Shown here piece by piece: positions 12 through 55,332 of a DNA stretch of 64,000 bases. The notes under the pieces were generated by a model. That model ran no database searches. It saw nothing but the letters and a program-made list of their open reading frames with translations, and was not told where the DNA came from. Origin of the DNA: Escherichia phage T4. Where the stretch lies: sequence record NC_000866.4; one strand, written 5' to 3'. Positions within the stretch are counted from its first letter, which is position 1; each line of letters opens with the position of its first letter. The translations under genes were made by a program, and so were the position numbers.

Positions 12-2189
12 TTAGGCCGCAAGGGCCTTCATAGTTTTAGCGATTTGGGAAACTTCATCATCACTTAAAGAGTTGCGATAACCGATGAAGTCGGAAACAA
101 TACGGAATTTCTTGGTAAACTCAGCAACCATTTTATCACTGTTTTTTGAAGCATTATTTGATAATACATCAAAAAGATTAGTTACTGTCCAAATGTCATG
201 ACCGATGGTATCTTTTCCACCATTAAAATATACACCCTGTAATGAACTAACCATATTAGCGAGTCGTGTATATTCTTCAGAAACTTCATCTATACTGAAG
301 TACTTCATCATAAAATCTAACTCAGGATACTTGATAATTTTATCAATATATCGTTTAGCTGAACTTGAATAACCTACATACTTATCATAATCTACATCAT
401 CAAAAGCATCTACATATAAATCACGCAAAGCTTCAAAAATACATTGGCACTGACCGAGTTCTTTTACCTTTTTCTGTAAAAGCGGACGAATAACATAAAA
501 TTCATTAATGCCAATAAGATTAGCCATACGAATCAAAATATTCATAGATGGATGACAAAGAGATGTAGTACCATCCATAGAGAAAATATCAGAACGATGC
601 ATATACGCTACATAACCAGTAATTTCATCTGCTTCTGATGTGAGGCGTAAATAATTCCTCTTTTCCCAGCGCCCGTCTTTAATTTCAAACTTAAACGCTG
701 TAGCAGCTTTAGGACGAGGAGCTTTACTTTTAACTACCTTTGGAATATAACTTTTTACTAAAGCTTCAATTTCTGACAAATAATGAATGTTAACTTCATC
801 ACTTTCAAACATCGCCATAATATCAGGAAGCAAATCAATCTGCGATTCTACTTCTGGATTAATAAACAGAAGACGTTCGTTATGATGAATATTCAAAGTG
901 TTATTAAATTCACTATCATCTAACGCACGTGCTAATCCACGGACAATATTAACACGATTTTTAATATTATCAATAACGATATTAATTTTTGTTGTATTAA
1001 TACCAAACAGACGATAACTTGATGCAACGGCTGAAGTTTCATGACTTTGCTTAATGCGCTTCAGTCGAGGGTCAAGATTTACTTCATACACAACTCCCGC
1101 GTTGCATAACTTACTGTCAGGTTCAAACATGCTCTGCATCTTTTTATATGACAGATTTTTAGTCGTGAATTTGACTGAATTACTAATCATATAATCTCGA
1201 GCAGAATACCCCATCTTCATCAATTCACGATATGTGTGACGAGGAGATGTAGATTCTTTAAATCGTTTTACATCTTCATTAAATGCTTTCTCACTGAGTT
1301 CTTTAACTCGTTCAATAATATTTTTACGAGTGCGATCATCCAGTGAAAGAGCCTCGCGAGATGGAGCAATATCAAGTGAACCCATTGGAAACTTAATGTA
1401 ATTCACTTCATTGCGAATGCTTAGCCAGTTACGGTCTCTAATAACACCATCGATAGGATAAACAATACCACCGTAGATAGCATATAATCCACCACGATCA
1501 GGCCAGTATCTTTCTGGATTTACACCGTAATAGTCATCAAAATCCGGAAAATAATCAATTTCGCGGTCAAGACCATTAATGATAGCCAAATCTTTGAACG
1601 GTCGCATGATATAAGAAACTTCATAAGCAAAGTTTCTAAAGTCTTTTTCTTCAACTGGAACTACGATTTCAATACCAGTTTTATCATCTGGACCCATTTC
1701 TTTTACGAATGTAGGTTTAATCTGTGGACCATCACCATCCATGTAAGCTACATAACCACGAATTTCACCTTTATGATACGAAGTAATACTAAACGTATCA
1801 GTATAACTAAACGGAGATTTAGAACCTAAACCAAATCCGCCAATAAAGTCATTAGATTCAGCTTTAGATGAACTGAAGTATGAATTATACAACCCAGGAG
1901 AATTATCATCACCTTGAATATCAAAATCACTCATACCCGGACCAAAATCTCGACAAACAAATCGTGGGTCTAAACGTCCAGGAACTTGTATGATAAATTT
2001 TTCAGGATTTCCATTAAGTGCATGAGCATCAATCATGTTAGTAATCAATTCACGGACTACTGCGCGAATCTTGTTTGTATACAAATCAGATGACAGAATT
2101 TTAAATACTTTAGGAGATGCTGTGATGCTAAATGCTTTTGATTTAGAACCATTACCAAGAATTGTTTCTTTTTCAGTGGTGATAATCAT
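12..2189 (-). CDS. rIIA: rIIA protein, 725 aa, GHKL-type ATPase-like N-terminal region
   Basis: 725-aa [11 protein letters not shown]..., ATG at 2187-2189; length and sequence match T4-type rIIA; motif [10 protein letters not shown]. Confidence 0.93.
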
Positions 2190-48621: not shown

Positions 48622-48936
48622 TTACGCTTTGTCATTTTCTTCTCGGTCAAATCGGTGTTTACAATGGCGACATTTATAACGAAGATTATTAGTCTGCCAA
48701 TGGACCAATTGCACCTGTTCAGTTCCACATTCAGGGCAATTAGGAACGTTTTTAGAAGCCCTTTCGCGACGTTCAACCATGACCATTACAGAATCCCAAT
48801 TAACAGGAGGGCTATAATCATCACAACCATAAATCTTTCCACGCATTTCCAGATCGTCTTCTTCACCAGCCATAATAATTTTAATTAGACTAGAATTACT
48901 TGAAGCTGCAATGTCTTCTAATAGACGCTTTTTCAT
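48622..48936 (-). CDS. hypothetical zinc-ribbon protein
   Basis: 104-aa ORF with CPECG...CRHCKH. Confidence 0.55.
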
Positions 48937-49859
48937 TTCAATACCTCAATAGCATTACGTAAACCATTTGCTTTGGCGGTTAAATCCTTAAGAACTTTAG
49001 TATGCTCTTCAATCTGTTTTTCAACTTCAATCAAACGGGTACTGAGATATTCGCGTTCTTCTTTCATAGTATCATTCCCATGATTGGGCTTTGGCGTAGG
49101 TTTAAATTTATTAGGGTCCTTTAACTTAATAACAACTTTAGTTTCAAACAGTGAAAGACCATAATTCGTATTATCATCAAAGGATTCAACTACGTCCATT
49201 TTAGACAATAACGTACGAAGTTTATAAGTCAAAGAACGAATCGTTTTATTATGTTTATTAGCTTCACATGGTTTCATATATGGAAGATTTTTATATATTT
49301 CATGCGGAGCACAAACAATAATTAACAATTCAAATGGTCCATTCTGAGATGATGGAATGAATTTAGCCGTAACCCAATCTTTTACATTTACATTAATAGT
49401 ACGATCATCGCCATGACAAAACAGTCTACGAGAATGCTTAAAAAGCATATTCACATTATTATTAAATTCGTGTGAAAACTCACTGGCAAATTTTTCTTTA
49501 CTATCTTTAGAAAACCATTCTTCTAAATAAGTTCTTTTCACGTCGTTAATAATATTAAATGTAACAACATTATCATTTGATACATTAGTCTCAATGTAGC
49601 TTGGATACATAAATTTTTTAACATTATTAACAGCTATCACAGAAGATAGTAATCGGGAACGTTTGAACCACTCGAGCAAAGAACCAAGAGAATGTGAATA
49701 CGCATTTTGTGTATCTTTACAAATATGGTTTTCCCATCCAATATAGTCTAAAAAATCACGAAGAATATTATTGATTACTTCTCTATGTCCTTTCTGATAA
49801 TCACGATGTTTAGTAATAAGACTGTCAAAATAATCAATATAATGTTTACGAGTTTTCAT
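48933..49859 (-). CDS. hypothetical protein, paralog family with coiled-coil C-terminus
   Basis: 308-aa ORF starting MKTRKHYIDYF..., coiled-coil C-terminus. Confidence 0.6.
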   Translation of the reverse strand: MKTRKHYIDYFDSLITKHRDYQKGHREVINNILRDFLDYIGWENHICKDTQNAYSHSLGSLLEWFKRSRLLSSVIAVNNVKKFMYPSYIETNVSNDNVVTFNIINDVKRTYLEEWFSKDSKEKFASEFSHEFNNNVNMLFKHSRRLFCHGDDRTINVNVKDWVTAKFIPSSQNGPFELLIIVCAPHEIYKNLPYMKPCEANKHNKTIRSLTYKLRTLLSKMDVVESFDDNTNYGLSLFETKVVIKLKDPNKFKPTPKPNHGNDTMKEEREYLSTRLIEVEKQIEEHTKVLKDLTAKANGLRNAIEVLK

Positions 49860-49913
49860 GTTCTTCTCACTTGGTTAATGATTTATACTCCGAGCCATCC
49901 TTGGCTTTAAATT

Positions 49914-50915
49914 TTACTTAATTAACTGCAAAGCTTGTTCTAGACGATCAAGACGATTAACGGATTCTTCCCAAATCTTTTTAGCCTGCTCATATTCTTT
50001 CTGCGCTTTATTAGAAATTTCTAGAACTTCTTTATAAGCTTTTTCTAGTGCAATAACTTCTGGACGAATTTCTATCGGTTCAGGTGAATCATCAAGACAT
50101 TCCATTAGTTCCTCAAGGGTAGTTTCTTCTTTAGGAGTATTCACAATTTCATCACATTTTTGTTGGTAAATTTCTTTACTAGTAGGTGAATAAGCACATT
50201 TCACTTCACGAAGGCTAATTACGAGTTTATATCCTTCCCAACCGCATATATTCTTAAAAGGATATGTATGAATATTTTCTACTGTTTCCATACAAAGTAA
50301 TGCGGTCTCTAATTGACGAGTTATAGTGCTAGCAATTGAGAAAAATTTATTAATATTCTTTTGGTTAGTTTCTGGTGTAAAAAATCCATAATTCACAAAA
50401 ATAGATACTTTATTTTTATCAAGTTCATATTCTTTTATGATAATCATATCAGAAGCCAAAGGATGAATTTGACGATAATCGCCATAACATAATTTAGAAG
50501 CTGATTTTAGAATTTGCTTCTTGAAAAGTCTGAAATTACTAATCCAACGACGAGTAAAAATATTCTCAGGGTCTTCTTTATTATTGAGATGATAAGAATT
50601 AACATCACCGAACCAATTATATCCTACTACATCTTTAGTTCGTTTAATTTCTTTCCCAAAATTACCAAGAATATCCCGATTAACCAAATATGAAAGAAGA
50701 CGAGACTCTTTAAAGGTTTTCTTGATAACATCTTTATCTACACGGCTAGAAATTTTACGAATTTCATGAATAAATTTAGTAGAAGAAACAATACTTGCAT
50801 CAACACTATTGAGCCACTGATTGATAATAGAAAGAACGCTATTTTGGCCAAACATCGGTATAGCTTTATCATCAATAACGCTATTGAATGATTTGATATA
50901 TTCGTTACGAGTCAT
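49914..50915 (-). CDS. hypothetical protein, paralog family with coiled-coil C-terminus
   Basis: ORF MTRNEYIKSF... (ATG at 50913-50915 behind a strong SD GAGGAG). Confidence 0.6.
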   Translation of the reverse strand: MTRNEYIKSFNSVIDDKAIPMFGQNSVLSIINQWLNSVDASIVSSTKFIHEIRKISSRVDKDVIKKTFKESRLLSYLVNRDILGNFGKEIKRTKDVVGYNWFGDVNSYHLNNKEDPENIFTRRWISNFRLFKKQILKSASKLCYGDYRQIHPLASDMIIIKEYELDKNKVSIFVNYGFFTPETNQKNINKFFSIASTITRQLETALLCMETVENIHTYPFKNICGWEGYKLVISLREVKCAYSPTSKEIYQQKCDEIVNTPKEETTLEELMECLDDSPEPIEIRPEVIALEKAYKEVLEISNKAQKEYEQAKKIWEESVNRLDRLEQALQLIK

Positions 50916-50943
50916 ATTAATCTCCTCAGTAGAAAGTAAGAAC

Positions 50944-50973
50944 ATTATACCACATCCTTGTGGCAAAGTAAAC
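50944..50973 (-). promoter_or_regulatory. early sigma70-type promoter
   Basis: Minus strand GTTTACtttgccacaaggatgtgGTATAAT. Confidence 0.6.
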
Positions 50974-51995
50974 TAGTTCAGTGCATTTAGTGCATTGTTC
51001 AGTTTAGAACGTTGCTTTGTCAGATTTTGAACCCTTGACTGAGCTTGTTCTAACGCCTTTTCAGCTTCTAGCACTTCATTGGTCGCTTTAACTAATTCAG
51101 CATCTACTGCCTTAAGAGACTTCTCAATCGCATCCGCGTGCCATTTTTCAACAGGTTTAAGACTTGGATTTTCAACAGGAAGAAAATTCACTTTATTGAA
51201 TTTCCATGCATCTTTATTACCTGAGCTATACATCCAAAATTTAGGATCGTTTGATAAGTAATTAGATAAATTTAAGTTATCTTGCACTTCTTGCTTTTTC
51301 TCTTGTGTGACTTCGTCCTTTCTCAAAAATTCATATTTAAATGAAACGATCATATCAAGTTCATATGATGTTGTATCTAACTTAAATCGTTCAAAACGAG
51401 GTAAAATCTTAGATTGAACAGCAGCAACAACATCCATATACTTAAATGCTTCTGTCAACTGCGATTTAAGGCATTCGCAAATTGAAAGAGAATTTTTTGT
51501 ATTAGGTTTAAAGCTAATTCGTGCAGTTCTATTATTTTCTTTTAACGGTCTTACTTCCATCTGAAGAGTATAACCATCAAATTTCAGATTCTTTAAGTTA
51601 ATGTCAGAGCCTTTTAATCGACTAGCAGTAGACAAAATTTGCTTTAATTGTCTACGGAACAGAGCAATAAATCTCCATTCAATACGATAATGATTTGGAT
51701 TGAAAAATCCAGATGATAAATCGACCTTACTTTGACCAACGCCTTGAACAAATAGAGGATTTTTATAATCAATAGTTTTACAGAAATCGGTGAGCTGTTC
51801 ACGAGCAGTCATTTGAGTAATATACCCTGCTTTACTAAAATTACGCACCCATTCACTGCTATTCGTATACTTAAAGTGATGAATAACACGATTAACTTTA
51901 TCAGGGTCTAAATTATTTTCACACAAAAATGTCATAACATCACGAGTATAGCTGGCATTACGAACCATATCTTCAATTTGAGAACGAGTTTTCAT
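50973..51995 (-). CDS. hypothetical protein, paralog family with coiled-coil C-terminus
   Basis: 340-aa ORF starting MKTRSQIEDM..., coiled-coil C-terminus. Confidence 0.6.
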   Translation of the reverse strand: MKTRSQIEDMVRNASYTRDVMTFLCENNLDPDKVNRVIHHFKYTNSSEWVRNFSKAGYITQMTAREQLTDFCKTIDYKNPLFVQGVGQSKVDLSSGFFNPNHYRIEWRFIALFRRQLKQILSTASRLKGSDINLKNLKFDGYTLQMEVRPLKENNRTARISFKPNTKNSLSICECLKSQLTEAFKYMDVVAAVQSKILPRFERFKLDTTSYELDMIVSFKYEFLRKDEVTQEKKQEVQDNLNLSNYLSNDPKFWMYSSGNKDAWKFNKVNFLPVENPSLKPVEKWHADAIEKSLKAVDAELVKATNEVLEAEKALEQAQSRVQNLTKQRSKLNNALNALN

Positions 51996-52065
51996 GGTGT
52001 TCCTTAAGATTTAAGTAAATCAACAATTTTAATTAACTTTTCACGCTCAGATTTAGCTTTACTAC

Positions 52066-52917
52066 TCAATCCAGATAGTCTGAAAATTTCATCATCATAT
52101 TGTTGAATAGAAATATCAGCTCTTCAATTTGCTTATTAAAATAATCAATTTGTTCAGAATGTTTTTCGTTACTACGAACTGGTACAGGTTTTGTAGGCAA
52201 TTTAGTTGAACTGGATTCATTCGGGCGATAAATTAAAATGCAATTTGAACCAATCGGGCATTTAGCACCAGATGAATATTCTAACGTTCCAGCTTCTTTT
52301 AAAACTTCAAAAGCTAAACAGAGATGATGCCCCATATTAACATAATCAGTAGAGCGAGCTCTGATGTAATAATCATCTCCACGAGTGCTAAATTTAAAGC
52401 ATTTAAGGTCTTCTGTATTATTAGTTTTAAAAATCATTTGTTTATCTAGACCTTTAGCCAATCGAGCACCTAATGCTAATAATCGTCGTTGATTTTCCCA
52501 CAAATCTGCGATCATTTGGTCAAATGATAATTTCGGCATTAGCCGACCATAAAGGTCATATCCTTTATTATAATTGCGAAGGATTTCACTCGCATTAATA
52601 CGAGACAACGCTCCAATTTTATTAAGGGCTTTCATAATACGATTAGATAAACTCATTCCAGACCCGTTTGTTCGCTGTAAATGTTTTTCTAATCCAAATC
52701 CAATATCAACTTTAAATTTATCTAAAATTTCAGCATGAACATCTCTGTCAATAACATTCAAATCCAAAGTTGGGTTAAATCTATGAAAAAATTTATCTGG
52801 CTCTCCACGACGTAAAACAGTCCATTCATTCATCATTTTTTTATTAACTAAAGATTTAATTACTGCGTTGACATTATTAATTACTACTGACATATTTTCC
52901 TCACTCAATTTTACCAA
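52066..52917 (-). CDS. hypothetical protein
   Basis: 283-aa ORF. Confidence 0.55.
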   Translation of the reverse strand: MVKLSEENMSVVINNVNAVIKSLVNKKMMNEWTVLRRGEPDKFFHRFNPTLDLNVIDRDVHAEILDKFKVDIGFGLEKHLQRTNGSGMSLSNRIMKALNKIGALSRINASEILRNYNKGYDLYGRLMPKLSFDQMIADLWENQRRLLALGARLAKGLDKQMIFKTNNTEDLKCFKFSTRGDDYYIRARSTDYVNMGHHLCLAFEVLKEAGTLEYSSGAKCPIGSNCILIYRPNESSSTKLPTKPVPVRSNEKHSEQIDYFNKQIEELIFLFNNMMMKFSDYLD

Positions 52918-53302
52918 TTACGCGGAATAAGATTGAACAGACTATATAAGTACCACATATAGATTGAACTAATGCCATTCCAAAGAACCAAACAATATTA
53001 TCAAACCATGTCTGTTTTACGTCGAAAGGACGTAAACTTACAGTAATATTATCACCTTTTTCTATTGAAGAATACGTCTCTGGGGAAATATATTCACTAA
53101 ATCTATAACCGTCTTTGAGTTCATATACAGCAATAAACGATAAACTAGACCCCTTTCCTTGAGTTCCTGTAAGGGTATTAACTACAGTAACATCATAATC
53201 TTTATAATGCATATAATCATTAATTGCGTAATAACCATATGCAATTACTATACATAAACAACATATCAATAAATTCAATCTTTTAATTATCAACTGTTTC
53301 AT
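52901..53302 (-). CDS. hypothetical membrane protein
   Basis: 133-aa ORF with N-terminal hydrophobic helix. Confidence 0.55.
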   Translation of the reverse strand: MKQLIIKRLNLLICCLCIVIAYGYYAINDYMHYKDYDVTVVNTLTGTQGKGSSLSFIAVYELKDGYRFSEYISPETYSSIEKGDNITVSLRPFDVKQTWFDNIVWFFGMALVQSICGTYIVCSILFRVIGKIE

Positions 53303-53357
53303 AATAATCTCAATTAAAAGGGCTTAGAACCATTATACCATCCTTGGTATAAAGCGG

Positions 53358-53885
53358 TTATGCGAGTACCGTATTTAACCGTTCTTCAAACTTCCGAAGA
53401 GTGTTCTGGCGTTCAGCTCTTTGCTTTTTGTAAGTTTCAATACGCTCTGAAATGAGAGTGTATCGTTCATTTACTGATTCTTTCATAAAATCAGGAATTT
53501 CTCGAGAAGCTTTAATCTCGTCAAATTTATCAATAACAGCTTGCTCTTCAGCAATTAAGTTATCATACATCAAAATATCTTTCTTGATGAACTCAATATC
53601 TTCTTGAGTTACACGAGATAATTTAGATGCTTTATCCTTTTTGTACTGTTCGTTAGTATCACGAGACCAGTGTAATGTACGATTTTTATTCGTATTCTTG
53701 TAAATTTCTACAATACCAATCTCATCGATAATAACGATCCAATTCCAACGGGATTTGTAAATTTGTCCTCCATTAACAGTGATTTCACCTCCGATTGAGA
53801 TGTCATTAAAGAACTTGCTTTGTGCTTCTGATTTAAATTTACCATCGTTGTAATTTACCAGGTTGAAAATATCTTTAGCGTTCAT
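53358..53885 (-). CDS. hypothetical protein
   Basis: ORF MNAKDIFNLVNYNDGKF... (ATG at 53883-53885 behind SD GGAGGAA); the longer ORF-track start would overlap the promoter. Confidence 0.55.
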   Translation of the reverse strand: MNAKDIFNLVNYNDGKFKSEAQSKFFNDISIGGEITVNGGQIYKSRWNWIVIIDEIGIVEIYKNTNKNRTLHWSRDTNEQYKKDKASKLSRVTQEDIEFIKKDILMYDNLIAEEQAVIDKFDEIKASREIPDFMKESVNERYTLISERIETYKKQRAERQNTLRKFEERLNTVLA

Positions 53886-53911
53886 TTTGTGTTCCTCCGT
53901 AGTTGATAGTT

Positions 53912-53943
53912 GTATAGTACCACAGAGGAACGGTCTTGTAAAC
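53912..53943 (-). promoter_or_regulatory. early sigma70-type promoter
   Basis: Minus strand GTTTAC -35 with a TATAC-type -10, same arrangement as the other early promoters here. Confidence 0.5.
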
Positions 53944-53945
53944 AA

Positions 53946-54342: not shown

Positions 54343-55332
54343 TTATGAATTTATTTCAGAAGAGTAACCCGTAGCGATTTCTTCCCAACCGTTTTTGTCG
54401 GTCATAATAAAGTCAGCAAGATAAAGTGCAGTACGCAGTGAAACATTACGTAAACGGTTAACATTGACTTTCATCCATGATAATGCTTTATAAGTTTCTT
54501 CATCAGAAAGACCACGCTTTTGCATCATGTCGGTTGAAAGAATAACATCTTCAACCCTGACCATAATTTCTTCATTAGTGTGAACACCCAAATCCAAATA
54601 AACTGAGCGGGACACTAATGCTTGTAAATGTGGAGCAAGTTTAGTACCACGGTCTAATTCGCGGTCAATGTCAACGTTTGTGATAAAAACAATTGTTCCT
54701 TTAAATTCGAGCTCACGCTCAATGCCTTTTTCTTCTAAGTAAGAAGATGCAGTGCTCCAGCAGACTTTACGGGTCTCTCCAGTGTCCAGAGCAGCTTTCA
54801 GAAGATTAAGAATGTCCATATCAGAGAAAACATCCACATCATCAATCAAAAGGACAGAATTCTCTTCACGATTATTCCAAAGCTGTTCATAAAGACCGAT
54901 ACCAGAGATTTTACCGTTAATGCTTTTATACTCAATGTATCCAATATCATTTGCTTTATTCAAAGCTTTATCTAAAGAATATGTTTTACCAATACCCGCC
55001 GCACCAGAGATAATTAATGAACGAATATTTCCGTTAATAATACCATTCGTCATCATTCCCATAACATTAAATCTTTTATTAATGCGGGTTTTCATATCTT
55101 CATATGATTCTTTAACTTCTTCAACTTTTACACCATCATATGAAATGTCTGATTTGTAAACCCAAACACCGCGACGTTTACCGTCAATTTCAACAAAAAC
55201 TTTACCATCTCCTTGTGCATCTACCGGAGCATTATCAGGGAACCATTCACCTAAGAGCTCAAAAGTTCCAGAGATTTCTTTACCGAAGTACATACCCTTA
55301 TTGATAGTTACAGTTTTCATTTTATTCTCCAA
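54343..55332 (-). CDS. predicted P-loop NTPase (AAA-like ATPase)
   Basis: 329-aa ORF with Walker A GAAGIGKT and Walker B LLIDDVD. Confidence 0.65.
   Translation of the reverse strand: MENKMKTVTINKGMYFGKEISGTFELLGEWFPDNAPVDAQGDGKVFVEIDGKRRGVWVYKSDISYDGVKVEEVKESYEDMKTRINKRFNVMGMMTNGIINGNIRSLIISGAAGIGKTYSLDKALNKANDIGYIEYKSINGKISGIGLYEQLWNNREENSVLLIDDVDVFSDMDILNLLKAALDTGETRKVCWSTASSYLEEKGIERELEFKGTIVFITNVDIDRELDRGTKLAPHLQALVSRSVYLDLGVHTNEEIMVRVEDVILSTDMMQKRGLSDEETYKALSWMKVNVNRLRNVSLRTALYLADFIMTDKNGWEEIATGYSSEINS

Follow-up and report, generated by a model that had tools for sequence, protein, structure and literature searches.

A probable one-base omission at the 3' end of nrdC.6 in the bacteriophage T4 reference record

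The window analysed here, that is, the whole stretch of 64,000 nucleotides, comprises positions 1-64000 of the T4 reference record AF158101 (NC_000866.4), as is indicated by the match between window coordinates and the variant positions published for AF158101. The features that concern us are collected in Table 1. The open reading frame listed at 52066..52917 opens at a TTG codon, and the real start of nrdC.6 is the ATG at 52893, in agreement with the annotation of U76612, which gives a gene of 828 nt and a protein of 275 aa as the window reads. Between the frame-0 stop and nrdC.5 lies an apparent 'gap' of 70 nt, in which a scan for promoters and terminators found nothing. Relative to nrdC.6, the -1 frame stays open here for 39 sense codons: it is bounded upstream by an in-frame TGA (52126..52124), begins 58 nt (19 codons) upstream of the frame-0 stop TGA (52068..52066), and is closed by a TAA from which exactly 8 nt lead to the nrdC.5 ATG (51995). 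Thus, the second open frame that the initial annotation had noticed does exist and its stop lies where it had been placed, 8 nt before the next ATG, although it is 39 rather than about 32 codons long and its upper boundary is at 52123 rather than 52130. The remark that it has no start codon of its own also holds, with neither ATG nor GTG in the frame and a single, internal TTG.

Table 1. Features in and around the 3' end of nrdC.6, in window coordinates, with the peptides that tell the two forms of the protein apart
Feature	Position	Strand	Remark
rIIA	12..2189	-	first long ORF of the window
nrdC.5	50973..51995	-	340 aa, DUF7235 / phrog_2351; next gene after nrdC.6
Probable true stop of nrdC.6, TAA	52004..52006	-	overlaps the Shine-Dalgarno-like AAGGA of nrdC.5
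Alternative open frame	52007..52123	-	39 codons; probable true C-terminus (N)ISIQQYDDEIFRLSGLSSKAKSEREKLIKIVDLLKS encoded from 52116 downward
Probably artefactual frame-0 tail IFLFNNMMMKFSDYLD plus TGA of the 275-aa reference protein	52066..52116	-	
Site of the missing base	52115..52117	-	window CTG-ATA, resequenced CTG-AAT-A; c.778dupA, codon 260
nrdC.6 codons 1-259, correctly read	52117..52893	-	ATG 52893..52891 to Leu259 CTG 52119..52117
Peptides of the 296-aa form			...ELNISIQQYDDEIFR / LSGLSSK
Peptides of the 275-aa reference form			...QIEELIFLFNNMMMKFSDYLD; ...ELIFLFNNMMMK

Around the site, 1.1 kb of the window agree at 100% identity with U76612.1, in which the T4 nrdC-mobD region was originally recorded. 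Thirteen other T4-lineage records were matched, all at an identity of at least 99.5% and 11 of them at 99.9%, and in all of these 11 records 1102 bases align to the 1101 bases of the window, i.e. there is one extra base. The initial annotation had proposed resequencing or alignment to the reference as a check; alignment to the other T4 sequences found the window short of one A relative to resequenced T4. In direct alignment the difference falls at 52115-52117, where the window reads GAGCTGATATTTC and both T4T (HM137666) and T4-Hancock (MT984581) read GAGCTGAATATTTC. The AA allele is also matched exactly by OZ209023, OZ209057, RB55, and RB59, and the count of resequenced T4 records with GAGCTGAATATTTC, aligned or matched exactly, is four. 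The extra A turns codon 260 from ATA (Ile) into AAT (Asn), the recorded CTG-ATA-TT giving way to CTG-AAT-ATT, and nrdC.6 becomes a continuous ORF of 891 nt and 296 aa ending in ...QIEELNISIQQYDDEIFRLSGLSSKAKSEREKLIKIVDLLKS. This corrected sequence encodes exactly the NrdC.6 of T4T (ADJ39810.1 / UniProt D9IEC4, 296 aa), whereas the window as written gives the 275-aa NP_049704.1 / P39257, the last 16 residues of which are derived from the frameshift. Up to Leu259, nrdC.6 of the window is identical to that of T4T and T4-Hancock, both of which annotate the gene as 891 nt (296 aa). The annotation of nrdC.6 reaches the TAA at 52006..52004 in these two as well as in T6 and PYps10T. Furthermore, a 4.1-kb alignment shows no difference between T4T and T4-Hancock, and four sites, namely 54370, 53502, 53076, and 52116/7, separate both of them from the window.

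The two alleles differ greatly in how widely they are found. Among 50,697 phage records, a 61-nt query specific for the window's allele matched only U76612 exactly, whereas the corresponding 62-nt query for the AA allele matched 46 records exactly; among IMG/VR contigs the counts were zero and three, respectively. At the protein level, the exact 275-aa form was present in one contig only, which is the 168,903-bp reference itself (NP_049704.1 / P39257), and the 296-aa T4 protein (ADJ39810.1 / D9IEC4) in 239 contigs.

Reading through in one frame to a homologous C-terminus is found in T6 and PYps10T (Tequatrovirus), NC-G and KIT01 (Dhakavirus), and TH40 (Gaprivervirus). The initial annotation had considered that orthologs might end where the listed ORF ends; all intact orthologs examined end instead at the stop of the alternative frame, and the frame-0 tail has no counterpart in any ortholog aligned. 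In tail alignments down to 39-44% identity the motif DDEIFRL is invariant; the invariant positions are D267, D268, E269, I270, F271, and L273, and likewise K281, E283, R284, L293, L294, and K295. All five differences between the T4 and T2 tails are third-position and synonymous, and in more distant relatives the differences in the tail fall 12-14, 3-4, and 18-20 times at codon positions 1, 2, and 3, respectively. Substitutions in the alternative frame are thus biased towards synonymous ones, and the tail is under purifying selection. Few segments of this protein family are as well conserved as the tail. The phrog_2257 profile matches the repaired protein with E = 3.8e-152, residues 1-296 aligning to positions 1-303 of the 303 in the profile, and PF26899 is the precomputed assignment on all NrdC.6 homologs. 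In an AlphaFold2 model of the repaired protein (mean pLDDT 76, pTM 0.65), helices are predicted at residues 243-272 and 278-295 (pLDDT about 85-90) after a disordered linker. If the model is right, the frameshift of the reference at codon 260 would cut the first C-terminal helix and delete the second.

The nrdC.6 homolog of T2 (LC348380, 595-1428, homologous to window 52004-52893) carries an in-frame stop at the codon corresponding to Gly202 of T4 (...EVLKEA-stop-TLEY...). It is also truncated at its 5' end, together with a shortened nrdC.7, and is annotated as two small ORFs. This lesion suggests that nrdC.6 is dispensable in laboratory hosts.

Very probably, the window lacks one A, the true nrdC.6 protein has 296 aa, and the omission is most likely a sequencing or compilation error. 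In this account, the reference record AF158101 would be missing one A in nrdC.6 at position 52116, within window 52115-52117, the real T4 gene would be one continuous 891-nt gene ending at the TAA 8 nt before nrdC.5, and the 'alternative frame' would be nothing other than the last 37 residues of the 296-aa protein. The omission itself would most likely go back to an error of reading or compilation during the gel-based sequencing of cloned and PCR fragments in the 1990s. As expected of an error in a reference record, independent resequencing disagrees with the record, correction restores a conserved ORF, and the aberrant allele is not seen beyond the record and those derived from it. The one-base difference and its exact position, the restored ORF, the conserved tail, and the allele unique to the reference record are observations, whereas an error of sequencing, as opposed to a mutation of the DNA used for it, is our inference as to the cause. 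The missing base lies outside any long homopolymer (A versus AA), so it would not be the most typical gel-reading error. We regard the second open frame as a known sequence-record artefact and a private mutation of the sequenced clone as less likely. The initial annotation had offered a frameshift, programmed or mutational, or chance as explanations; a frameshift it is, but neither a programmed one nor chance, and most likely not a biological mutation either.

The length of the open frame does not decide by itself whether it could be a chance open frame in AT-rich DNA without coding meaning, since at the 3' ends of the window's long ORFs 14-34% of off-frame spans reach at least 39 codons (the figure of 34% is inflated by neighbouring genes, the range being 14-24% once neighbours are removed). 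Within coding regions, stops occur in the -1 frame at a frequency of 0.15 per codon, which gives a geometric P of 0.0017 for at least 39 codons, and 0.04% of the -1 runs there reach this length. What excludes chance is that the encoded peptide is conserved in orthologs, down to 39-44% identity and with synonymous-biased substitutions, along with two confident helices in the model, and we leave this explanation next to no probability. The -1 phase, the conserved peptide, and the end just before the next gene would also fit programmed -1 ribosomal frameshifting or transcriptional slippage giving products of 275 aa and roughly 296 aa, much as in the lambda tail assembly chaperones gpG/gpGT, where the -1 frame past the frame-0 stop provides a C-terminal extension. 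In nrdC.6, however, unlike in gpG/gpGT, a slippery heptamer, a stimulatory structure, and a conserved two-frame layout are all lacking. A slippery heptamer, which the initial annotation had considered worth searching for, is absent from the 58-nt overlap: there is no X_XXY_YYZ in frame 0, the sole XXXYYYZ (AAATTTT) is in the wrong phase, and the longest homopolymer is TTTT. The RNA downstream has a minimum free energy of -17.5 kcal/mol, and shuffled sequences average -16.4 (z = -0.40), so that there is no sign of a stimulatory structure. Moreover, since all intact orthologs and all other T4 records examined use a single continuous frame, there is no two-frame arrangement to conserve. Programmed frameshifting is thus effectively refuted, its probability being negligible.

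A more serious rival to an error in the record is that one base was really deleted in the T4 stock, or in the cloned fragment, from which the sequence was determined in the 1990s; NrdC.6 would thereby be truncated at codon 260 to a protein of 275 aa ending in a nonsense tail. Such a deletion would be tolerated because nrdC.6 is non-essential in laboratory hosts; as T2 has an independent in-frame stop, the gene can evidently be dispensed with in the laboratory, and on this ground a real lesion is plausible in principle. The independent lesion of T2, with its in-frame stop and 5' truncation, is an example of gene loss in laboratory T-even phages, and contemporary T4 sublines carry private frameshifts in other accessory genes (arn and mobD.6; PMC8573959). 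However, none of the other T4 records examined has the window's allele, and these include T4T, the isolates RB55 and RB59, which are identical to T4, and a stock that was sealed in 1972. In addition, the reference is an outlier at about 172 shared sites (73-75 of the differences being indels), far above the at most 13 differences among real stocks, and a second C-terminal one-base discrepancy, in nrdC.10, lies only 2.3 kb away. This outlier pattern and the discrepancy in nrdC.10 favour an error of the record over biology, and we consider a real deletion unlikely. It is conceivable, albeit quite improbable, that the T4 stock of the 1990s did carry the single-A allele; together with the T2 lesion, this would mean that nrdC.6 has been inactivated more than once while T-even phages were propagated in the laboratory. 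If so, the conserved helical C-terminus may be needed only in natural hosts, e.g. for a role in countering a defence system that is absent from E. coli B and K-12.

The discrepancy in nrdC.6 is already known and published, and an error in the reference record, the explanation we prefer, agrees with what has been reported for the record as a whole. Data Set S1 of Subedi & Barr 2021 (PMC8573959) lists an insertion at AF158101:52115, A>AT, as a frameshift_variant of nrdC.6 (c.778dupA, p.Ile260fs). Reads for AT versus A at this position number 9225:14, and 7365:1 in another subline (PMC8573959); the entry is listed three times, which we interpret as once per subline. These authors found 172-175 variants relative to the reference, of which 73-75 were indels, in three T4 stocks, one of them sealed in 1972. 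About 172 of the differences are common to all three stocks, whereas the stocks differ from one another by at most 13 variants, and the authors trace these shared differences to possible artefacts in the original composite reference (PMC8573959). Taken together, two independent papers have resequenced T4 departing from AF158101 by 156-175 differences, 55-75 of which are indels (Rihtman et al. 2016, PMC4893331; PMC8573959). Errors of AF158101 / NC_000866 are thus documented (PMC8573959, PMC4893331), and the nrdC.6 variant is one of those listed, shared by all three resequenced sublines (PMC8573959). In the literature the term 'nrdC.6' was not found in main texts, and the variant was located only in a supplementary table. 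The papers give the variant without discussing its consequence, whereas here its correction is seen to restore a conserved, predicted helical C-terminus of 37 residues.

The correction is of little biological importance, and its value is practical, for curation. The RefSeq and UniProt entries NP_049704.1 / P39257 (275 aa, "31.7 kDa") would carry a wrong tail of 16 residues and lack the 37 conserved C-terminal residues, so that cloning, modelling, or proteomics based on the reference would use the wrong NrdC.6; the proper form would be ADJ39810.1 / D9IEC4 (296 aa). Because the reference has about 55-75 such indels, any 'alternative frame' at the end of a gene in AF158101 calls, as a first step, for a comparison with resequenced T4 genomes. 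At the 3' end of nrdC.10 (54343-54375, minus strand), the window reads ACGGGTTAC and T4T and T4-Hancock read ACGGTTAC, by which NrdC.10 ends in ...EEIATGYSSEINS in the window versus ...EEIATVTLLK in resequenced T4; this discrepancy is listed as 54367 del AC>A (PMC8573959). The substitutions at 53076 and 53502 relative to both resequenced T4 genomes, which are Thr76Met in NrdC.7 and synonymous in nrdC.8, respectively, count among these reference-specific differences as well.

NrdC.6 is uncharacterised, and its family, phrog_2257 / PF26899, is of unknown function. A search with a Pfam set that did not contain PF26899 gave nothing informative, a sequence search of the PDB gave antibody light chains as best matches (all with E of at least 0.09), and Foldseek found no match in the PDB at E of 0.001 or below. 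The structural relatives of NrdC.6 in BFVD are exclusively uncharacterised proteins of T4-like phages. The similar lengths and helical C-termini of NrdC.4, NrdC.5, and NrdC.6 had raised the idea that NrdC.6 is a paralog of the other two, which was rejected on BLASTP E values of 0.14-1.3 and an hhalign probability of 0.13%. NrdC.3, NrdC.4, and NrdC.5 have helical, coiled-coil-like C-termini, with no homology to NrdC.6 detected. Only nrdC.3 and nrdC.4 (48933-50915, minus strand) share a family, phrog_1435, to which each aligns from end to end (E = 5.5e-101 and 5.6e-168), so that these two genes are tandem paralogs; nrdC.4 and nrdC.5 both show weak matches to phrog_26858. In many phage records and GenBank relatives, the ORFs from nrdC.3 to nrdC.8 (window 48933-53945) are labelled 'thioredoxin'. 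No thioredoxin Pfam domain was found in NrdC.3-6, and the label looks like a name propagated from the neighbouring nrdC. The NrdC.6 homolog of Shigella phage Sf25 is annotated with 378 aa, about 82 aa above the usual length, probably because its start was wrongly assigned or because it is fused to the nrdC.7 region upstream.
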